From positions 2,713,716 to 2,777,715 of the forward strand of contig NZ_AP026867.1 in assembly GCF_026000115.1 (NCBI RefSeq): a stretch of 64,000 nucleotides of DNA, given 5' to 3'. This DNA is from Aureispira anguillae (GTDB lineage Bacteria; Bacteroidota; Bacteroidia; Chitinophagales; Saprospiraceae). Below are positions 4,550-56,786 of this stretch, piece after piece (the first letter of the stretch is position 1; each line of letters opens with the position of its first letter). The translations under genes and the position numbers were made by a program. The notes under the pieces are model-generated. The model was not told where the DNA came from and did no database searches. It was given only the letters and a program-made list of their open reading frames with translations.

Positions 4550-4869
4550 GTTTATGCTCCATAGAATTGGGTTCATCCATTTGCTAAAAAAGAACGCCAC
4601 TAAAAAAATATCCTTAAGAATTTAGAATTCAAAACTAGTAACTAATCAAAAATGCCTATCTTTGCCCCGATAACGAGTTGCAGTGCGTTTGGGGCACTAA
4701 AATTTGGTTCTATTTAGAAATTAGAATAGTTCATTGAACTTTTGTAATAAACACAAAAAACACACTTATAGCACACTGATTATTACAGCCCAATGAACAG
4801 CATTAGCGGCATAGCACTTTGTGCATTTCTGAGGTTTTAGTGAACTATTAAAATTAATCAAGTTTAGTA

Positions 4870-5940
4870 ATGAGAGAATTTCCAAAAATTACAGACCCTA
4901 TCTTTGTTAAGAAAGAATTAAAAGGCATGGACAAATTTTTTGCCACCAAAATTAGGGATGAGCGTGATTTGCCTTTTATCTATTTAATCATAAAAATAAC
5001 TTTTATTCTAATTCCCTCTGCCATTTTATTGTATAGCCCCTTATTGCAAGGAAATTTGTGGTGGGGCGGGGCTGCCTTCCATTTGTTTTTGTGCATTATT
5101 GTCTTTTTAGGTCCTTATACCTTAATGTTACACAACACGAGTCATCGTCCATTTTTTAAGAAAGAAAATGAAATTTGGAATAAATATATTCCTTGGATTT
5201 TAGGTCCTTTTATGGGACAATCGCCAGAGTTGTATTTTATTCACCACATGGGAATGCATCACAACGAAGGGAATATGCCAGAAGATAAGAGTTCTACCAT
5301 GCCCTTTCAAAGAGATAGCTTTTTTAACTTTTTACACTATTATTTGCGCTTTTTGTTTATCGGAATCATAGAATTAACACAGTATTTTTTCAGTAAGAAA
5401 AAAAATGCCCTTGGTATAAAAGCAGCTAGAGCCGAATTTCTTTATTTGTCGTTCTTAGCATTGCTTTGCGTATTTGTCAATTGGGGAGCAACCATGGCCG
5501 TATTTATTATTCCTTTGTTGATTATTCGCTTGGCAATGATGTCAGGAAACTGGGGGCAACATGCATTTGTAGACCCAGACGAACCAGACAATGATTATAC
5601 CAGCAGTATTACTTGCATCAATTCAGGTTACAATCAAAAATGTTTTAATGATGGTTATCATATTGGTCATCATTTGGTTCCTAATATGCATTGGACGGAC
5701 ATGCCAGTTGAGTTGCAAAATAATCTTCAAAAATACTCTGATAACAAGTCATTAATTTTTGAAGGGCTAGATTTCCAAATTGTATGGATTTTATTGATGC
5801 TTAAGCGTTATAACACTTTGGCAAATCACTTGGTTAATATCAATGGCAATACCTTTGCTTCTAAAGAAGAAGCTATCCAAATTATGAAACATCGCACCAA
5901 GCGTTTTTCTAAAGAAAAGCTACAATTTTATACGCAATAG
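4870..5940 (+). CDS. membrane fatty-acid desaturase family protein with three His boxes
   Basis: The three boxes HNTSH, HHMGMHH and HIGHH sit in the order and spacing typical of di-iron membrane desaturases/hydroxylases. There are multiple TM helices. Confidence 0.7.
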   Translation: MREFPKITDPIFVKKELKGMDKFFATKIRDERDLPFIYLIIKITFILIPSAILLYSPLLQGNLWWGGAAFHLFLCIIVFLGPYTLMLHNTSHRPFFKKENEIWNKYIPWILGPFMGQSPELYFIHHMGMHHNEGNMPEDKSSTMPFQRDSFFNFLHYYLRFLFIGIIELTQYFFSKKKNALGIKAARAEFLYLSFLALLCVFVNWGATMAVFIIPLLIIRLAMMSGNWGQHAFVDPDEPDNDYTSSITCINSGYNQKCFNDGYHIGHHLVPNMHWTDMPVELQNNLQKYSDNKSLIFEGLDFQIVWILLMLKRYNTLANHLVNINGNTFASKEEAIQIMKHRTKRFSKEKLQFYTQ

Positions 5941-5970
5941 TTTTTATATCAGTGCTTATATCACCTATAT

Positions 5971-6008
5971 AAAAAAACGGATTAGCTAAGAGCTAATCCG
6001 TTTTTTTT
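5971..6008. terminator. bidirectional rho-independent terminator
   Basis: A perfect stem cggattagct-aag-agctaatccg is flanked by an A7 run upstream and a T8 run downstream. Confidence 0.6.
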
Positions 6009-6166
6009 ATGTAATTTATTACTCTCAATCAACTCATTATTATAACACTCCAATCAAAACGCTGTAATTTTTCGTGTAAAAAAATAACAAAACTAATTAA
6101 TCTAATCTAATTCGTTTTGTACTTTTATAGTCTTAATTTTTAAATTACAAATAAATCTAACCCAAA

Positions 6167-6760
6167 ATGAAAAAATTGATCTCCCCCACTTGCTTATTAA
6201 GCTGTTTGTTTGCTGCCCTTTTCCTCCTGTCTAGCTTTTCTGTTGACTATTCTAGATCAGATAGTAGAGATGATAACCCTCCCATTACTAAAAAAGAAAA
6301 TCGCCGCAAAAATAGATTAGAAAAACGCCAAGCAAAACTCACCAAACGCCTAAAAAAAAGCAAATCTACGGCTCAACGCCAAGCCATCCAGAAAAAAATT
6401 AGAGGCATTCAAAAAAAGCAAAATGATGGCGGCACACCAGCAATTGGTATTGTAGGAATGGTACTTTCGTGCATTTCATTTGTTTTGCTATTAGTCTTAT
6501 TATTTTCTGCCTTGATACTTCTTTTTATTACGGTGTTGGGAGGAACTGCTGCCTCCACTGGGTTCCCTTACTTATTTTTAATTGTACTAGGTTTGGGAGT
6601 TGCCTTTGCAGGACTAGTAATTTCTATTATATCTCTTATCCTCAATAAAAATAATCCTGAACGATTCACAAGAAGAGGCTTTGGTATTGCAGGAATGATT
6701 ATAGGTTCAATTGCCTTAGGTATCTTTCTTATTGCTGCGCTTATCTTCTTTTTTGCTTAA
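6167..6760 (+). CDS. hypothetical membrane protein. It has a signal/TM segment, a Lys/Arg-rich segment, and four C-terminal TM helices.
   Basis: The ORF has a clean N-terminal hydrophobic segment and a highly basic stretch KKENRRKNRLEKRQAKLTKRLKK. The C-terminal half is hydrophobic and GxxxG-rich. Confidence 0.45.
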   Translation: MKKLISPTCLLSCLFAALFLLSSFSVDYSRSDSRDDNPPITKKENRRKNRLEKRQAKLTKRLKKSKSTAQRQAIQKKIRGIQKKQNDGGTPAIGIVGMVLSCISFVLLLVLLFSALILLFITVLGGTAASTGFPYLFLIVLGLGVAFAGLVISIISLILNKNNPERFTRRGFGIAGMIIGSIALGIFLIAALIFFFA

Positions 6761-6789
6761 CATCAAGCATTTCAAATTATAACGATAGA

Positions 6790-6830
6790 ATGGATCTATT
6801 CCCCTCTACTGGAGAATAGATCCATTTTTG
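6790..6830 (+). terminator. rho-independent terminator
   Basis: The stem atggatctattc / gaatagatccat (12 bp, perfect) is followed by TTTTT. Confidence 0.55.
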
Positions 6831-7177
6831 TCCTTATCTAATTAGGGGTTTAAAATTTATCAGCAACTTTGTGGCTTTTGGGGAACGAAAAAGGCAAAAT
6901 TGTTGTTGTCCCCTCATCTATATTGTTCATATACTACAAAATTCAACCTATTATATCTTTTCACGTTTATAATAAACTAAAAAGATTTAAGTAATCGTTC
7001 ACAATAATTTACAGGAAAAAATAAATCTTTTTGCACTACTCTTCCTCTAAAAGTTTTGTTTTAGCTCGCTAAAACTTCAACTTTTTTCTTTGATTAGCAC
7101 TAAAAATAATTATTTTTTTTACCTATACTTTTTTATGCCCGCTTACTTACCTATGAAAAACTAAATTCAAACCCATT

Positions 7178-48156: not shown

Positions 48157-49131
48157 ATGAATAATAAAGAATTAATTCTTACGGAGAGTGATGATCGTTT
48201 TGTTTTATTCCCAATTCAGCACGATGCAGTGTGGGAAATGCGAAAAAAAGCTTTAGCTTGTTTTTGGACAACAGATGAAATCGACTTAGAAGCAGACATT
48301 ATTGATTGGAACAATAAATTGAATGACAATGAGCGTCATTTTATCAAACATGTTCTTGCTTTTTTTGCAGCAAGTGATGGCATCGTTAATGAGAATTTGG
48401 TCCTAAATTTTTATAAAGATGTTCAAATCGCTGAAGCACGATCTTTTTACTCGACACAAATACAAATCGAGGATATTCATGCTGAGACATATAGCCTTCT
48501 GATTGACACTTACATCAGAGACACTGAAGAAAAAAATAGACTTTTTAAAGCAATGGATACCCTGCCTTGCGTACAGAAAAAAGCTAAATGGGCACTAAAA
48601 TGGATCGACGAAGCGCCTTCTTTTGCGCACCGATTAATTGCCTTTGCTGCTGTAGAAGGTATCTTCTTCTCTGGTAGTTTTTGTGCAATTTATTGGCTCA
48701 AAAAACGAGGTTTAATGCCTGGCTTAACCTTCTCTAATGAATTGATCAGTAGAGACGAAGGAATGCATTGTGACTTTGCTTGTTTGCTTTATTCTATGCT
48801 AGAAAACAAATTGGACAAACAAGTGGTTCAAGATATTATCACAGAGGCTGTTTTATTCGAAAAAGAATTTGTAACAGATGCCTTGCCTGTTTCTCTAATT
48901 GGTATGAATGCTGGATTGATGACCGAATACATTGAGTTTGTTGCAGATCGTCTTTTGGTCTCTTTAGGCAATGAAAAGGTTTATGGGACTGCTAACCCCT
49001 TTTCTTGGATGGATTTAATTTCTTTGCAAGGAAAAACAAACTTCTTTGAAAAACGTGTTGGAGATTATCAAAAGGCTGGCGTTATGGCCGACCGTGATAA
49101 ACAAACGTTTTCTTTGGATGAAGATTTCTAA
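48157..49131 (+). CDS. nrdB: ribonucleoside-diphosphate reductase beta subunit (class Ia R2)
   Basis: Di-iron ligand blocks ([11 protein letters not shown]) are present. A radical tyrosine context is present. The C-terminal tail ends in DEDF. Confidence 0.85.
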
Positions 49132-49345
49132 TTTCATCCCACTTTATCACTAGAATAAAACTAAAAACACACAAAACTTGATAAGTGGCTATCGGGGCAA
49201 TCGTTAGGTTCTCTAGGGTAGTCACTCGCTAATCCTTTGACCTTAATCAAAAGATTCTGCGCCCTAAAGTATCACTAGTATTCATACTAGTAATTCTTCC
49301 ATCATTCTAAATGCGTTTAATGCGCATTTTATTAAAACAAAGAAA

Positions 49346-51715
49346 ATGCAAGTAGTAAAAAGAAATGGACAAACAGAAGATGTATCTTTTGACAAAATCA
49401 AAAGACGAATTGAACACCTTTGTAATGGGCTTGATCTACGTTATGTAGACTCCATTGAAATTTGCAAAAAGGTTATCCAAGGTTTATATGATGGTGTAAG
49501 TACCACTATTCTTGACAACTTAGCCTCAGAGACTGCTGCTACAATGGCAACCCAGCATCCTGATTATGCAATTTTGGCTGCCCGTATCTCCGTTTCCAAT
49601 CTCCATAAAAACTCCAATAAGTCTTTCTCTAAAACCATGAAAGCACTTCATGAGTATATTGATCCTAAAACAGGAGAAAATGCTCAGTTGATTTCTAACG
49701 ATACCTTTGCTATCATTTGGAAAAACCGCAAAGTATTTGATACTGCAATCAAACATGAGAACGATTATGAATTTGATTATTTTGGATTCAAAACCTTAGA
49801 GCGTTCTTATCTATTGCGCATGGACGGAAAAATTGTAGAACGTCCTCAATATATGTTAATGCGTGCTGCTATTGGCATCCATGGAACGGATATTGTTTCA
49901 GCTATCCAGACCTATAGCCTAATGTCTGAGAAGTGGTTTATTCACGCTACTCCAACGCTATTTAATGCAGGAACGCCCAAACCACAGTTGTCTTCTTGCT
50001 TCTTGTTGAGTGCTACAGAAGACTCTATTTCTGGGATTTTTGAAACCTTGACTCGTTGTGCCAAAATATCACAATCTGCGGGAGGTATTGGTTTGAGCAT
50101 TCACAATGTTCGTGCCCAAGGAAGTTATATCAAAGGTACTGGTGGTACCTCTAATGGTATTGTTCCCATGTTGAGAGTTTATAACGATACAGCTCGTTAT
50201 GTAGATCAAGGTGGAGGAAAACGAAAAGGAGCTTTTGCTATTTATTTGGAGCCTTGGCATGCTGATATTTTTGAGTTTTTGGATTTAAAGAAAAATCACG
50301 GTAAAGAAGAAAAACGTGCTAGAGACTTATTCTACGCCATGTGGATTTCTGATTTATTTATGAAACGGGTGGAAGAAGATGTTGAATGGACGCTGATGTG
50401 CCCGAATGAATGCCCTGACTTATACAATACCTATGGTGAAGAGTTTGAGCAACTATACTTAAAATATGAAGCAGAAGGTAAAGGTAGAAAAACGATAAAA
50501 GCACGTGAACTGTGGACCAAGATCCTAGAATCTCAAATTGAGACGGGTACCCCCTATATGCTTTATAAAGATCACGCCAACCACAAATCTAATCAGAAAA
50601 ACTTAGGAGTTATCCGTTCTAGTAATCTTTGTACAGAGATTATGGAGTATACTTCTAAAGATGAAGTTGCCGTTTGTAACTTGGCTTCTATCTCTTTGCC
50701 TAAATTTGTTATTAATGGCAAATTCGATTTTGAAAAGCTTTATGAAATCACTCGAATTGTCACTCGCAACCTCAATAAAGTAATTGACATCAACTATTAT
50801 CCAGTTGAGGAAGCTCGCAACTCTAACCTACGCCACCGTCCTATCGGAATTGGTGTTCAAGGTTTGGCAGATGCGTTAATTTTGATGCGTTATCCATTTG
50901 ATAGCACAGAGGGAAAAATGCTCAATAGAGCAATTTTTGAAACCATGTATTATGCTGCGGTAACAGAATCTTGTGAATTGGCGAAAGAGGAAGGAACCTA
51001 CCAATCTTACGAAGGCTCACCAATCAGCCAAGGTTTGTTGCAGTTTGATTTATGGGATCAAGCTCCATCTTCTAAATGGGATTGGGACAAGCTACGTGCC
51101 AACATCAAAGAGCACGGTATGCGCAACAGTTTATTATTGGCTCCTATGCCAACAGCGTCTACTTCTCAAATCTTAGGGAATAATGAATGTTTCGAGCCTT
51201 ATACTTCTAATATTTATACCCGTAGAACACTTTCAGGAGAATACATTATCGTCAATAAGCACTTGCTAAAGGATTTGATCGAAGAAGGGCTTTGGACTGA
51301 AGAAATCAAAGAGCAATTAATGGCTGCCAATGGTTCTGTTCAGAACATCAAGGACATTCCTGATCATCTCAAAGAATTGTACAAAACAGCTTACGAGATC
51401 AAACAGCGTCATATTATTGATATGTCAGCAGATAGAGGAGCCTTTATTTGTCAATCACAGAGTTTGAATTTGTTTGTTGAAAATCCAACCTTTGCGAAAC
51501 TAACTTCTATGCATTTTTATGCTTGGAAAAAAGGACTAAAAACAGGTATGTATTACCTTAGAAGTAAAGCGGCTGTTGATCCTATTAAATTTACACTTTC
51601 TGCCAAACATCAACAAAAATTTGTAAAAGCAGAAGCCGAAAACCCTGCGAATACACAAGAAGGAATTTCTTGTAGCTTAGACAATCCAGACGATTGTTTG
51701 ATGTGTGGTTCTTAG
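49346..51715 (+). CDS. nrdA: ribonucleoside-diphosphate reductase alpha subunit (class Ia R1 with ATP-cone)
   Basis: The ATP-cone reads [16 protein letters not shown]. The active-site region reads SNLCTEI. The C-terminal redox pair reads CxxC...CLMCGS. Confidence 0.9.
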
Positions 51716-51770
51716 GAAACTTAATCGCTTTTTGAGTTCGTTTGAAACTCAATAGTAACCATAAAATGAA

Positions 51771-51813
51771 GCCAATCTAAAGATGAGGAACGTTTTCCGC
51801 TCTTTAGATTGGC
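51771..51813. terminator. bidirectional terminator hairpin between convergent nrdA and ribA
   Basis: A 13-bp perfect stem gccaatctaaaga / tctttagattggc with a 17-nt loop. An A-run follows on the plus strand (a T-run on the minus strand). Confidence 0.45.
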
Positions 51814-51837
51814 TCATAAAAAATAGGCTGAGTAAAA

Positions 51838-52470
51838 TTATTTCAGTCCATGCTGAAATAGGATATGTCCCATTTTATCTCGTTTGGTTTTTAAGTAAAA
51901 ATTATTGTATTCATTGGCTTCAATTTCCAATGTTACATTTTCTACTACCTCCAAACCATATTTCTCTAATTCTTTTTGTTTTAATGGGTTGTTAGACATC
52001 AAACGCAATTTTTGAACGCCTAATAATTGCAATGCTTGAGTTGCTGCAATATATTCTCTTTGATCTGCCTCAAAGCCTAAATGTAGGTTTGCCTCAACAG
52101 TATCGAGTCCCTCTTCCTGAAGTTTGTAGGCTTTCATTTTATTCAAAAAGCCAATTCCTCTCCCTTCTTGTTCAATATAAACAATCACTCCTTTTCCTTC
52201 TGCCTCTACTCGTTTCATAGCAGCTTGTAGTTGAGGACCACAATCACAGCGCAAAGACCCTACAATATCTCCAGTAATGCACGAAGAATGTACCCGAACC
52301 AAGATAGGTTCTTCTTTGTTCCAAGTTCCTTTAGTCAAGGCAAATAATGTTTTACCCTTTAGTTTATCCTCAAAGCCCACCAGTTCAAACGTCCCATACT
52401 CTGTTGGCATGTTAATTCTGACTACTTCTTCGACAACCATTTTAATATCCTTAGTTTTATACTGATTCAT
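51838..52470 (-). CDS. ribA: GTP cyclohydrolase II (standalone RibA) with intact zinc-binding cysteines
   Basis: The block VRVHSSCITGDIVGSLRCDCGPQ retains the three Cys corresponding to E. coli C54/C65/C67. Confidence 0.85.
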   Translation of the reverse strand: MNQYKTKDIKMVVEEVVRINMPTEYGTFELVGFEDKLKGKTLFALTKGTWNKEEPILVRVHSSCITGDIVGSLRCDCGPQLQAAMKRVEAEGKGVIVYIEQEGRGIGFLNKMKAYKLQEEGLDTVEANLHLGFEADQREYIAATQALQLLGVQKLRLMSNNPLKQKELEKYGLEVVENVTLEIEANEYNNFYLKTKRDKMGHILFQHGLK

Positions 52471-52851
52471 CTAAAATTTTATACTACTAGTCAATAAAAA
52501 TATTGTTCTAAACTAAAATTTACTCCAACTCGATGGTTGATTCGTCACCAAACCATTTTTAGTTCTCATAAACGCTTAGCAAGATAATACCTCTTCATAG
52601 AAAACAACAGTATTCTATTCAAGATGGTTTAATTAAACTATAAATCAATGCAAATCTCAAATGAAATAAGCGCTTCAAAAATACACATAGGGGGGTTATT
52701 TGCACCTACCTAATACAACAAATCAATTTGATGATTTGAAATTTGGCGATTAAGACACACAACCAAAAATTCAAATCTCCAAATTGATTCATTGCGGCTT
52801 AATTCTTACAATTAAAACCATTTAATGTACTATACCAATAAGAAACCTATG

Positions 52852-54075
52852 TTAGATTTTAATAGGCTGCTCATCTTTAGTTGTTGCTTCCGTTGATGTA
52901 CCAGTAGTGTTTAAGGCGACATTTTCGACAATTTCAAGACCATATCCAATCAAGCCAATGCGCTTTTTAGGATTATTGGTCATCAAACGCAATTTGCTAA
53001 CGCCTAACTGTCTCAATACCTGAGCGCCAATACCGTACTCTCTTTGGTCTGTTTTTGTTCTCAAACGAGTTTTAACATCAGAAGTATTCAAGCCTTCCTC
53101 TTGGAGTTTTTTGAATGCTTTTAGTTTATTCATAAGATCAACACCACCTCCATCTTGTTCGATGTAAAGCACCACTCCTTTTCCTTCTTCATTGACTTGT
53201 TTCATGGCAGCATGCAATTGAGAACCTGAATCTCCTAATAATGCTCCAAAAACGTCTGTCGTTGTAAAAGAGGAATGCACTCGAACTAAAATAGGCTCGT
53301 CTTTCTTCCAAGTACCTTTTGTTAAGGCAAAAAGATTTTTTTCTGTCGTTTTATCCTCAAATCCAATTACATCAAACTCTCCATATTCAGTAGGAGCAGT
53401 TAATCGTACCACCTCCTCTATCAAAGTTTCTTTCTCTAAGCGATACTTGATTAAATCCTCAATAGATATAATTTTTAGATCGTGTTTGTCTGCGATTTCA
53501 AACAAGTCAGGCAAACGAGCCATTGTACCATCTTCGTTAAGAATTTCTACCAAAACACCAGCAGGCTTTAAGCCAGCTAATCTTGCCAAATCTACTGCTG
53601 CCTCTGTGTGCCCTGCACGGCGCAATACGCCACCATCTTTAGCAATCAATGGAAAGATATGCCCAGGTCGTGCATAATCACTAGATACAGTAGCTGAGTC
53701 GGTTAATTTTTGAATACCAGTAGCACGATCGTAAGCAGAAATACCAGTAGAACAACCAAAGTTCAATAAGTCAATTGAAATGGTAAATGCCGTTTCGTGT
53801 ACGGCTGTATTTTGTTGCTGCATAGGACGAAGTTCCAACTCATCACAACGTTGCGCTGTCAGGGGGGTACAAATAAGTCCTCGACCATGCGTAGCCATGA
53901 AGTTAATAAGTTGTGGAGTAATTAGCTCCGCCGCGCAAATAAAATCACCTTCATTTTCTCTATCTTCATCATCTACAACAATGATAATTTTGCCTGCTTT
54001 GATTTCTGCCAAAGCATCTTCAATGTTGTCAAGTTTGCGTTTAGGCGTCTCGTTTTGTAGGTTGCCAGATACCAT
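52852..54075 (-). CDS. ribB: 3,4-dihydroxy-2-butanone-4-phosphate synthase (RibB) fused to a degenerate GTP-cyclohydrolase-II-like domain (RibBX-like)
   Basis: The N-terminal RibB region reads IIVVDDEDRENEGD, with further RibB motifs. The C-terminal domain aligns to RibA, but its zinc-ligand positions read F, G and S (VRVHSSFTTTDVFGALLGDSGSQ). Confidence 0.85.
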   Translation of the reverse strand: MVSGNLQNETPKRKLDNIEDALAEIKAGKIIIVVDDEDRENEGDFICAAELITPQLINFMATHGRGLICTPLTAQRCDELELRPMQQQNTAVHETAFTISIDLLNFGCSTGISAYDRATGIQKLTDSATVSSDYARPGHIFPLIAKDGGVLRRAGHTEAAVDLARLAGLKPAGVLVEILNEDGTMARLPDLFEIADKHDLKIISIEDLIKYRLEKETLIEEVVRLTAPTEYGEFDVIGFEDKTTEKNLFALTKGTWKKDEPILVRVHSSFTTTDVFGALLGDSGSQLHAAMKQVNEEGKGVVLYIEQDGGGVDLMNKLKAFKKLQEEGLNTSDVKTRLRTKTDQREYGIGAQVLRQLGVSKLRLMTNNPKKRIGLIGYGLEIVENVALNTTGTSTEATTKDEQPIKI

Positions 54076-55255
54076 TTTGAACTCCTTTTAAGTATTTAAA
54101 AAATCCATTAAATAATGCCAAATTCATAGCATTAAAATAGGTTATATATCGTATAATAACTATGTTTAAATTTATTTTTTTGAACAGCCAATCCAGTAAA
54201 GGAATGCCAAATAAACCAAACGTTTCTATAATAAACAACACTAAATAAAATTGGTTGTGATAAACAAAGGCTAATGCAATCAAGCAAAGGTAAGAGATAA
54301 GAATAAAGAAGGGACCATACCAGCGCAATACCTTGTGTGACAAAAAGGTAAAACTCATAGATCCAGGTGGCCACAACAAATGTTTAAAAGCTGCTAAATT
54401 AGCAAAGTTGCCTGCTGAAATACGTGTTTTACGCCGAAACTCTTCGTTAATATCACTAGGCACAGCTTCATAACAAACCGCCTCCAACTCATTAATTGCG
54501 AGTTTTCCTTTCTCAAAAACTTTCATAGCAATATAAAAATCATCCACCAAAAAGTTAGCAGGCACAGGTTCAAACAATTCTGCTCGAATCGCATAACAGC
54601 CCCCTAAGGGTCCCATGGTGCGCCCCCAAGCCCTTCCTTCCAAATTTTTGATGTGTACCTCTCTAGAGATATACGATTTTTCAGAAGCTGCAATTCCCTT
54701 TGTTGTTAAGGTTTTTAATTTCGGGTTTTTGATATTGGAGTCTACCAAACCGATTTGCGAGTTTTTGAAGTGTTTCGCCAATTCATAAACGGTTGTTGGT
54801 TCTAACATTACATTAGCATCCGAAATAATAACAATATGTTCCTCTGTTGAAGGGCAATCTGCAATTGCCTGGCTGATAATGTCATTGATGACACTAGGCT
54901 TGCCTCTGCGCTGAGTGAAAGGGAAAAAATGAAATTGACTGTGCCCTTCTATAAATTGCTGAACCATAGCATTGGTTGCATCAGAAGAGCAGTCTGAACC
55001 GATGTATATACTAAACTTATCGCTTGGATAATCCGTTGTTAATAGGGTTTCTAGTTTTTCTAGAATAACAGCCTCTTCATTGTACAATGACATAACAAAA
55101 GAGACATGAGGGAGTGACTCCTTAGGCGCATAGAACTCTTGATTGTTAGCTTTTGAGGAAGCTACAAGTTTAAGTATGATTGGGTATAATACATAAGAAT
55201 GAAACAACCCAAACACACAGAGCCAGAAAATGATGGCACCTATTAGCATATACAA
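54041..55255 (-). CDS. family 2 glycosyltransferase with flanking TM helices (membrane synthase-like)
   Basis: The GT-A fold carries DxD-like motifs (DCSSD, SDAN). TM helices flank it at the N- and C-termini. The 3' end overlaps the ribB start by ~35 bp. Confidence 0.65.
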   Translation of the reverse strand: MYMLIGAIIFWLCVFGLFHSYVLYPIILKLVASSKANNQEFYAPKESLPHVSFVMSLYNEEAVILEKLETLLTTDYPSDKFSIYIGSDCSSDATNAMVQQFIEGHSQFHFFPFTQRRGKPSVINDIISQAIADCPSTEEHIVIISDANVMLEPTTVYELAKHFKNSQIGLVDSNIKNPKLKTLTTKGIAASEKSYISREVHIKNLEGRAWGRTMGPLGGCYAIRAELFEPVPANFLVDDFYIAMKVFEKGKLAINELEAVCYEAVPSDINEEFRRKTRISAGNFANLAAFKHLLWPPGSMSFTFLSHKVLRWYGPFFILISYLCLIALAFVYHNQFYLVLFIIETFGLFGIPLLDWLFKKINLNIVIIRYITYFNAMNLALFNGFFKYLKGVQNGIWQPTKRDA

Positions 55256-55327
55256 TTAAGCCTTAAAAATAAAGAATGGAGCTCCAAAACAGCATGCTCC
55301 ATTCTCCATTTTATTTTTACGATAAAA

Positions 55328-55906
55328 TTAAACAGTAACTGCATCCAAAACGGCACAGATACGTTCAAATATTTCTTCAATAGAACCAATACCATCAATA
55401 CGCTTTGTTTTATCAACTTGCGCATAATAATTCGCAACAGGTGAAGTTTGGCTCTTGTAAATGTCAATTCGATTTTGAATAATTGCAGTATCTTGATCGT
55501 CAACTCGTCCTTCAATCTTTCCTCTACTAGCTAGGCGCTGAATAATTTCTTCATCCGCAACCATCAACTCTACCAATAGGTTTACGGCTGTTCCTTCTTC
55601 TTTTAGGAAAGCATCAAGTGTTTCTGCCTGATTGATATTACGAGGAAAACCATCCAAAATATATCCTACAGCATCTGGCGTTTTTGCCATCTCTGCTCTT
55701 AGCAAGCTAATTGTTATAGAATCTGGCACTAAGTTTCCATTATCCATATAACTTTGGGCCTCTTGCCAAATAGCACTATTGCTTTTTTTCTCTCTTCTAA
55801 ACAAATCTCCAGTAGAGATGTGTACTAGATTGTATTTTTCTACCAATTTAGCTGCTTGGGTGCCTTTACCACTCCCAGGAGGGCCAAAAAGAATTAGATT
55901 CAACAT
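55328..55906 (-). CDS. adk: adenylate kinase
   Basis: The P-loop reads LILFGPPGSGKGTQA. The protein is 192 aa with a short LID and NMP-binding motifs. Confidence 0.9.
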   Translation of the reverse strand: MLNLILFGPPGSGKGTQAAKLVEKYNLVHISTGDLFRREKKSNSAIWQEAQSYMDNGNLVPDSITISLLRAEMAKTPDAVGYILDGFPRNINQAETLDAFLKEEGTAVNLLVELMVADEEIIQRLASRGKIEGRVDDQDTAIIQNRIDIYKSQTSPVANYYAQVDKTKRIDGIGSIEEIFERICAVLDAVTV

Positions 55907-56120
55907 ATTTATTTATGGTTTGATTGATGATTAATGCTATGCCCTGTGGAAGGAATAAATTAAGGTGATTTTTGCAAAAAACGTTTATTTAGTAATCTAA
56001 AAAATCGTTTATCATCCATTCTCACAGACAAAAACAAGGAAATAATCCCTATTATGCTGCAAAGGTACGCATTTTATATTTCAAATACTAGTTCTAACAA
56101 GAATTATATGAGATGAAGGT

Positions 56121-56786
56121 TTAGCCTAAGGCTTCTCTATGAATTATAGTAGCAATTTCAGCCGCTCGATCCATTACCATATTGTGCGTTCCATTTTTTA
56201 TGGTGTGCGTAATTTGTTCTTGTCTTAAGTTAAAAATGTGGTCCTTGGTTCCGTTGATGTGAATAAAATTGGAGGGGTAAGTTTCGTTGTCCCAAGCAAC
56301 AATTGCACGCCTTCCCCACGCAAAATGACTTGCTGTACAAGCATAAAGCATTGCTCGAAGGGTTTGGGTATCTTCCCGATTACAAATCCCTAAAATTCTA
56401 GCAAAAAAAGGAATGACAATCCGAATAAACCAAGCTGGCACAAGAAGATGAAGGGGCAAAATTCGGGCTATTTTAAAAAGAAAAGGAACTTCGCTTTTAT
56501 GTTTAAAAGTAGAAATAAGAATCAATTTTTGGAGGGGCATCAATTTGGACATTTCTGTTGCAATGGTTCCCCCCAAAGACATTCCAATTAAAACAGGCGG
56601 TTCTGCTGTCTTGGGGATGCACTCAACCATTCGTTTGGCATAGGCTGGAATTGTTTCATTTAAGCTTAAGGGTTCTTTATGTTCTAAGCACACAATTTCT
56701 TTTCCCTCCCCTTCTAGCAAAGGAATTAATTTGGAAAAAATGCGCACATCATTCCCTAAACCAGGCACCAAATATATTTTTGTCAT
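56121..56786 (-). CDS. alpha/beta-hydrolase-like protein (GMSLGG nucleophile elbow)
   Basis: The motif GMSLGG is present, with the hydrolase topology. Confidence 0.5.
   Translation of the reverse strand: MTKIYLVPGLGNDVRIFSKLIPLLEGEGKEIVCLEHKEPLSLNETIPAYAKRMVECIPKTAEPPVLIGMSLGGTIATEMSKLMPLQKLILISTFKHKSEVPFLFKIARILPLHLLVPAWFIRIVIPFFARILGICNREDTQTLRAMLYACTASHFAWGRRAIVAWDNETYPSNFIHINGTKDHIFNLRQEQITHTIKNGTHNMVMDRAAEIATIIHREALG

Follow-up and report, generated by a model that had tools for sequence, protein, structure and literature searches.

Background

Riboflavin biosynthesis proteins that join RibB (DHBP synthase; DHBP, 3,4-dihydroxy-2-butanone 4-phosphate) to a GTP cyclohydrolase II (GCHII) homologue are known as RibBA when both halves are catalytic and as RibBX when the C-terminal half has lost its zinc ligands. 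RibBX has been characterized in Proteobacteria. In Shewanella oneidensis the RibB domain is regulated by a C-terminal domain that has no GCHII activity itself (Brutinel 2013, as summarised in PMC10012899). Complementation or activity precedents for RibBX come from S. oneidensis and Aeromonas salmonicida only (PMC10012899).

Here we describe an arrangement of this kind in Bacteroidota, found in a 64,000-nucleotide stretch of the Aureispira anguillae genome (contig NZ_AP026867.1, positions 2,713,716 to 2,777,715; hereafter the window). A 407-aa fusion protein combines an intact RibB domain with a zinc-less GCHII-like domain, which we call X, and a complete standalone ribA lies directly downstream of its gene. 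We propose, with a probability of about 0.65, that the GCHII half of an ancestral fusion was duplicated locally and that the two copies then divided the labour, RibA serving as the GCHII and X as a scaffold or regulator of RibB.

The fused GCHII domain has lost its zinc ligands and the neighbouring RibA has kept them

The two genes and their relevant parts are as follows.

52852..54075, minus strand: ribBX-type gene, an open reading frame (ORF) of 407 aa with Pfam PF00926 and PF00925, RibB (DHBP synthase) plus zinc-less GCHII-like domain
53443..54021, minus strand: DHBP synthase (RibB) domain, intact, residues 19-211 (Pfam 1-191 of 191, E 2.9e-85)
52918..53409, minus strand: GCHII-like X domain, degenerate, residues 223-386 (Pfam PF00925, E 5.2e-56)
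53224..53277, minus strand: former zinc loop HSSFTTTDVFGALLGDSG, the Cys triad replaced by F270, G281 and S283
52855..52911, minus strand: decayed C-terminal tail, residues 389-407, in place of LEIEAN..YLKTKRDKxGH
51838..52470, minus strand: standalone ribA, complete GCHII of 210 aa, Pfam GTP_cyclohydro2 alone
52237..52290, minus strand: intact zinc motif HSSCITGD...LRCDCG of RibA (Cys64, Cys75 and Cys77; CX2GX7CXC)

The RibB half of the fusion is intact. The columns DDEDRENEGD, PGHIFPL, GGVLRRxGHTEA and VEIL are invariant in a 43-sequence alignment, and the protein scores above the NCBIfam cut-off for ribB (TIGR00506, 256.8 against 177.45). The same protein falls below the ribA cut-off (TIGR00505, 147.6 against 205.85) and fails all bifunctional NCBIfam equivalogs, among them PRK09311, the best (521.2 against 569), and PRK09319 (506.2 against 764). 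By these cut-offs, and with the zinc triad absent, the fusion is not a bifunctional RibBA. NCBI does not label these proteins bifunctional and JGI does; proteins of this type should not carry the bifunctional annotation.

Residues C54, C65 and C67 of E. coli RibA, the reference sequence having been checked against PDB 2BZ0, align with F270, G281 and S283 in the fusion, within the stretch HSSFTTTD...LLGDSG (nt 53277..53224). The sequence-only reading had claimed that all three zinc Cys are replaced in the 407-aa fusion and retained in a 210-aa RibA 380 bp away. The alignment to E. coli RibA bears this out, with F/G/S in the one and C/C/C in the other; the motifs are where they were said to be except for a displacement of about 10 nt, the exact positions being 53277..53224 and 52290..52237. 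It had also allowed that the Cys might be preserved at shifted positions. The disrupted triad is no alignment slip: the neighbouring columns RVHSS, D58 and QLH align in register, and 24 related proteins share a disruption at the same columns. Its further proposal, that the C-terminal domain would be unable to act as a zinc-dependent GCHII, agrees with the missing triad and with the failed ribA and bifunctional models.

The loss of sequence in X is wider than first noted. EGRGIG is replaced by DGGGVD, DTVEAN by NTSDVK and GF by RT, and the conserved GCHII tail is swapped for an unrelated 19-residue end. After VENVPL, the tails of X lineages measure 7-25 aa and show no resemblance between lineages, while locus L081 and protein P0001 retain a tail vestige, LEVEGKLN. 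Lacking its zinc ligands, the two catalytic motifs and the tail, X would be unable to open the guanine ring and is almost certainly inactive as GCHII. Published mutants point the same way, and from them we infer inactivity by analogy: loss of any single Cys leaves neither zinc binding nor activity (Kaiser 2002, as cited in PMC10366380).

The 210-aa RibA scores above both NCBIfam cut-offs (TIGR00505, 241.8 against 205.85; NF001591, 249.8 against 148). Its residues 13-204 match E. coli RibA (2BZ0) with E 2.8e-56 and cover E. coli residues 3-194, tail included, and the protein is 100% identical to the NCBI entry 'GTP cyclohydrolase II [Aureispira anguillae]'. With cut-offs, zinc motif and tail all in agreement, the ORF is confidently predicted to be a GTP cyclohydrolase II RibA. 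The evidence fits and supports the earlier suggestion that GCHII activity would be supplied by this neighbour. An intact RibB domain, a C-terminal GCHII homologue without zinc ligands or ring-opening residues and a separate GCHII gene together assign the fusion, as far as sequence can, to the RibBX type.

The arrangement recurs in a conserved neighbourhood

The gene order adk, family-2 glycosyltransferase (GT2), rib gene is common to all Saprospiraceae loci. Besides the window, seven zinc-less loci have a GCHII gene of 206-216 aa directly downstream.

L081, L082 and L083: triad FGS, ribA downstream
L085 and L093: triad FGG, ribA downstream
L086: triad SSV, ribA downstream
L087: triad VGG, ribA downstream

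Within the same adk-GT2 frame, L084 (82% identical), L089 and L090 (Saprospira) carry an intact fusion without a downstream ribA. L088, from a Saprospiraceae metagenome-assembled genome (MAG), is zinc-less (SKD, 5001-6212) and shows no ribA in the 2.5 kb covered.

The triad is absent from 23 of the 120 best homologues. The other 97, including proteins 82% identical to that of the window, read CCC. Of the 24 related proteins with a disrupted triad, 20 read FGS or FGG.

P0001-P0015 and P0017: triad FGS
P0026, P0030 and P0032: triad FGG
P0020: VGG; P0035: SSV; P0049: NYH; P0111: SKD

An assembly artefact was considered and rejected, as the arrangement repeats in many independent genomes and metagenomes.

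A background sample of 80 other loci, mostly Bacteroidota, was drawn from a contig scan (RibBA at no more than 64% identity, no Aureispira). The triad is present in 77 of them and absent in three.

L046, uncultured Chitinophagales MAG, 6007-7149: triad NFK
L059, Portibacter marinus, 6007-7107: triad TGY
L078, Bacteroidota MAG, 5962-7110: triad MDL

No second GCHII gene was found within 6 kb in these three loci. Their lineages and that of L088 are scattered in the RibB-domain tree (weak support), which suggests that triad loss in Bacteroidota RibBA has been repeated and independent.

Separately, locus L036 (CALRLC020000001.1, 812 kb, titled as a Brevundimonas vancanneytii MAG) codes for a RibBA that shares 60% identity with the Aureispira protein. 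This identity falls in the Bacteroidota range, and the contig or bin may be mislabelled.

RibA resembles a local duplicate of the fused GCHII half

RibA is not an unrelated gene; it seems to be a copy, made locally, of the GCHII half of the fusion itself. The standalone RibAs form one clade with 97% bootstrap in a neighbour-joining (NJ) tree, with an internal order roughly as in the X clade, and all 34 standalone homologues of this clade carry the CCC triad. In its catalytic part and tail, RibA shares 70-73% identity (up to 77%) with the nearest relatives' fused domains and 60-62% with those of distant Bacteroidota (Spearman rho 0.41, p = 3e-5). The top NCBIfam model for RibA is the bifunctional PRK09311, over positions 204-405, and RibA shares the C-terminus ...GLK with the intact fusion of L084. 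X itself shares 60% identity with the neighbouring RibA and 71% with the GCHII domain of L084, which is intact.

In L085, at 6189-6240, the 21-nt spacer and the first ribA codons, taken in a frame other than that of ribA, read IFIEDLCK nine residues upstream of EAVR. At its RibB/GCHII linker, intact L084 has the colinear sequence ISIEDLIK-(9 residues)-EEVIR, and the 8-residue match may be a vestige of the duplication boundary.

P0139 (266 aa, part of RibB plus GCHII) was considered as an intermediate and rejected, being part of an intact ribBA split by a frameshift on metagenome contig L092. There, at 4551-5801, an L084-type intact ribBA is called as two genes of 106 aa and 266 aa, probably through a frameshift or an assembly error.

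The two copies decay as mirror images

Segments were compared in E. coli numbering by mean pairwise identity among X domains (n = 20, FGS/FGG), intact fused domains (n = 19) and RibA (n = 34).

Segment 113-125 (DTVEAN..GF): X 48%, intact fused 85%, RibA 89%
Segment 126-147: X 90%, intact fused 86%, RibA 59%
Segment 148-170: X 88%, intact fused 89%, RibA 57%
Tail (171-194): X 24%, intact fused 79%, RibA 81%

The same opposition is seen column by column. Among the columns conserved at 95% or more in the 97 intact fused domains, RibA keeps about 29 that X has lost.

Lost in X, E. coli (Ec) columns: 54, 57, 62, 64, 65, 67, 92, 94, 96, 97, 107, 113, 117, 118, 122 and 123
Lost in X, continued: tail columns between 172 and 192

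Conversely, Ec 102, 131, 133, 155, 160, 161 and 165 are kept in 24 of 24 X domains and lost in RibA. These seven columns fall in the YGIGAQ and KRIGLIGYGLEI motifs. Both motifs occur in M. tuberculosis RibA2 and, for the most part, in A. baumannii RibBX, and are absent in E. coli RibA.

An AlphaFold2 model (mean predicted local distance difference test score (pLDDT) 74.9, predicted template modelling score (pTM) 0.76) predicts a GCHII-like fold for X. Confidence is low only at the three former active-site loops (residues 275-282, 309-316 and 333-344) and at the tail (392-407), and pLDDT drops below 50 at residues 275-282, the former zinc loop. The top Foldseek matches are M. tuberculosis RibA2 (4I14, template modelling (TM) score 0.90) and A. 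baumannii RibBX (6MNZ).

The preferred explanation: local duplication, then division of labour

The preferred explanation runs as follows. The ancestor of the Aureispira lineage would have carried one bifunctional ribBA at this place, in the order adk, GT2, ribBA. Its GCHII-coding half would have been copied locally, creating a separate ribA immediately downstream. The free copy, in keeping the zinc triad, EGRGIG, DTVEAN and the C-terminal tail, would have assumed all GCHII activity. The fused copy would then have shed the zinc ligands, both catalytic motifs and the tail while selection still acted on the folded domain, and the fusion would remain as the supplier of DHBP synthase. X retains intact the C-terminal beta-alpha-beta unit DQRxYGIGAQxLRxLG...NNPxxRIGLIGYGLEIVENV (the 126-170 unit), and this unit would carry a job specific to the fusion, either packing or oligomerisation with RibB, or its control. 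We infer such a job because the unit is typical of fused RibBA and kept in A. baumannii RibBX. The proposed role agrees with that reported for RibBX of S. oneidensis (as summarised in PMC10012899), and Arabidopsis RIBA2 offers a parallel. As an origin for ribA, local duplication of the GCHII half is the most economical and the favoured one, though not proven.

Several observations weigh against this account. Duplication is short of proof because the NJ tree leaves the sister relation of RibA and X unsettled, with backbone support of 2-52%, and because tblastn and blastn found no significant RibB remnant in the ribBX-ribA spacers. The L085-type vestige was not found in the related L093 and is suggestive only. 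The RibB-domain tree, which is poorly resolved, places intact L084 and L089 within X-bearing lineages. The residues that replace the triad vary by lineage (FGS, FGG, VGG, SSV, NYH), so that different orders and numbers of loss events would fit. X also keeps R49, H51, D58, K101, Y105, D126, R128 and N150-N151-P152 at 88-100%, which could point to ligand binding instead of a purely structural role. In the NJ tree of X domains all zinc-less domains are drawn to the base, probably by long-branch attraction.

The kept residues bear on a rather unlikely alternative, in which X is a ligand-sensing regulator that would bind GTP (or 2,5-diamino-6-ribosylamino-4(3H)-pyrimidinone 5′-phosphate (DARPP) or GMP) without turnover and tune DHBP synthase to purine or flavin-branch supply, thus being more than a passive scaffold. 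They are invariant in active GCHII, and the A. baumannii RibBX domain (6MNZ) lacks D126/R128 and NNP, which the Aureispira X retains. The remodelled former zinc loop, HSSFTT[TS]D[IV]FGAL[LM]GD[SG]G, is 88% conserved in the 20 FGS/FGG proteins, above the domain average of 76.5%. However EGRGIG, DTVEAN and the tail, invariant in GCHII with turnover, are destroyed and variable in X, and the kept residues may reflect only a young event or structural needs. A more specific form of the idea, that X is a newly evolved allosteric module, seems unlikely. Such a module, sensing nucleotides or intermediates, would still bind GTP, GMP or DARPP through the retained R49/H51/K101/Y105/D126/R128/NNP residues, its former zinc site being Phe-filled, and would set DHBP synthase output against flux in the GTP branch, possibly while pairing with RibA. 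If true, the lineage would be a young and tractable case for following the turn of a dead enzyme domain into a regulator, and both intact and split sister species exist for comparison.

The same remnants of the catalytic site raise a highly improbable alternative, namely that X keeps part of the chemistry, converting GTP to GMP and pyrophosphate without zinc, or acting as GCHII through other metal ligands. Zinc is required for ring opening and pyrophosphate release is independent of it (Kaiser 2002, as cited in PMC10366380), and D126, R128 and Y105 are retained in X. On the other side, X no longer has DTVEAN, the tail, or R94 and E92 of the EGRGIG loop, F, G and S are unable to ligate metal, and the loop holds no alternative Cys/His cluster. 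A futile GTPase fused to RibB would moreover bring no obvious benefit.

Rates of change speak to whether X is instead a functionless relic on its way to deletion, still present because truncation would destabilise RibB or because too little time has passed. We consider this quite improbable. Relative to the RibB domain, X evolves 1.4 to 6 times faster, the figure for intact lineages being 1.0-1.3 times. The tail and two loops of X vary freely, and the triad replacements differ by lineage, all as a relic would predict. However the synonymous rate (dS) exceeds 1.2 in all pairs, so that synonymous sites are saturated and dN/dS can be given only qualitatively, the nonsynonymous rate (dN) being much less than dS. 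dN is only 0.07-0.43 for X, compared with 0.05-0.10 for RibB and 0.09-0.31 for RibA. No frameshift or stop interrupts the X-bearing ORFs in the eight loci read as DNA, nor in the other zinc-less protein clusters, and segment 126-170 is conserved as in active fusions. Comparable dead domains have been long retained in proteobacterial RibBX and in Arabidopsis RIBA2. X is thus relaxed, yet clearly under purifying selection.

Spacer, upstream overlap and regulation

The regions flanking the fusion hold the following features.

52471..52851, minus strand: spacer between ribBX and ribA, 381 nt (380-381), not conserved between species
52715..52795, minus strand: long imperfect hairpin with a stem of about 26 bp (RNA folding energy -36.5 kcal/mol, z = -5.76, a stability reached by 0 of 200 shuffles)
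54041..55255, minus strand: GT2 gene, its end overlapping the ribBX start by 35 nt (54041-54075)

The arms of the spacer hairpin are unique in the window, and the hairpin is not in the spacers of other species; it surfaced in Rfam as spurious miRNA-precursor matches. It is a possible terminator or attenuator, or an inserted element. GC-containing hairpins and T-runs directly follow the ribBX stop in L081 and L087, and the spacer is only 21-53 nt in L083, L085, L086 and L093. Because hairpins occupy some spacers and other spacers are this short, transcriptional uncoupling of ribBX from ribA may be limited to certain lineages.

No flavin mononucleotide (FMN) riboswitch was found, as the sequence-only reading had stated: Rfam gives no RF00050 match, nor any other match, at gathering score in the window, and none relevant at E<=10 in 51500-56200. 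The locus is therefore not a riboswitch-controlled rib operon by this measure. Scans for sigma-70-type promoters and for terminators gave matches at chance level. In the window the Bacteroidota -7 motif TANNTTTG shows only marginal enrichment, with 121 matches where 99 are expected, and its one spacer site, at 52676-52683, was rejected as promoter evidence.

The overlap with the GT2 gene occurs in every Saprospiraceae locus examined, intact or zinc-less. It measures 35 nt (GT2 end 5035, rib start 5001) in L081-L086 and L088-L091, and L087, L092 and L093 have an equivalent. GT2 and ribBX are likely one transcription unit, and the pattern suggests a conserved operon with translational coupling of a membrane glycosyltransferase to a riboflavin gene, without a riboswitch.

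On the other side, class I ribonucleotide reductase genes at 48157-51715 (plus strand; small subunit, then ATP-cone large subunit) converge on ribA. After ribA in L081, L082 and L087 come a 154-157-aa ORF and a convergent ABC-F ATPase, directly in L081 and L082 and two ORFs later in L087. These other Aureispira loci carry different genes after ribA, which places a rearrangement breakpoint immediately downstream of the window genome's ribA.

Comparison with known systems

The closest systems in architecture are the bifunctional RibBA or RibA2 proteins (M. tuberculosis Rv1415, 4I14; B. subtilis RibA; PRK09311), which have the same two domains and the same length. M. tuberculosis RibA2 is the best match of the fusion by sequence (370.7 bits) as well as by structure (TM 0.90). 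L084, L089 and L090 are genuine members of this group, whereas the Aureispira fusion lacks the Cys triad, EGRGIG, DTVEAN and the tail.

A eukaryotic parallel is AtRIBA2 (Hiltunen et al. 2012, PMC3509567), a RIBA fusion without the zinc residues and with a C-terminal GCHII deletion, for which another paralogue provides GCHII; in AtRIBA3 it is the DHBP synthase side that has been lost instead (PMC3509567). AtRIBA2 is a whole-gene paralogue, whereas the Aureispira case appears to be a domain-level duplicate beside the fusion. Intact sisters in the same neighbourhood, together with a rescuing ribA beside its probable parent, let the states before and after be compared in nature. The comparison reveals the residues that each copy was free to lose, and it marks YGIGAQ...GLIGYGLEIVE as the likely carrier of a non-catalytic function.

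Proteobacterial RibBX (Shewanella oneidensis, Aeromonas salmonicida, Bradyrhizobium ORS285, A. baumannii 6MNZ) shares with the Aureispira locus a RibB joined to a GCHII homologue without zinc ligands or tail, a separate ribA as GCHII source and a retained GxGAQxLRxLG...LxGxxLExVE unit. The genes are placed differently: in A. salmonicida ribBX belongs to the main rib operon, with a monocistronic ribA at another site (PMC10012899), whereas ribA of Aureispira is directly downstream. The 42% overall identity to A. baumannii RibBX 6MNZ is carried by the RibB half, and the X halves align weakly and with gaps. In the tree, X falls among Saprospiraceae RibBA domains, with L084 and L089 beside it. The fusion also falls below the cut-offs of the NCBIfam models PRK14019 (418.9 against 513) and PRK12485 (320.9 against 693), of 364-369 positions, which from their length we take to be the proteobacterial RibBX-type models.

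The sequence-only reading held that the locus mirrors proteobacterial RibBX. The arrangement is indeed of the same kind, reached by convergence and not by descent. Since X is 71% identical to the domain of intact neighbours and aligns weakly with proteobacterial RibBX, the comparison places the Aureispira fusion outside the proteobacterial RibBX lineage, as a RibBX-like outcome of independent and recent origin, and makes its X domain much younger than the proteobacterial one. Our literature searches found no published description of such proteins in Bacteroidota. RibBX has until now been described as a proteobacterial feature, and these loci indicate that the same outcome arose independently and recently in Bacteroidota.

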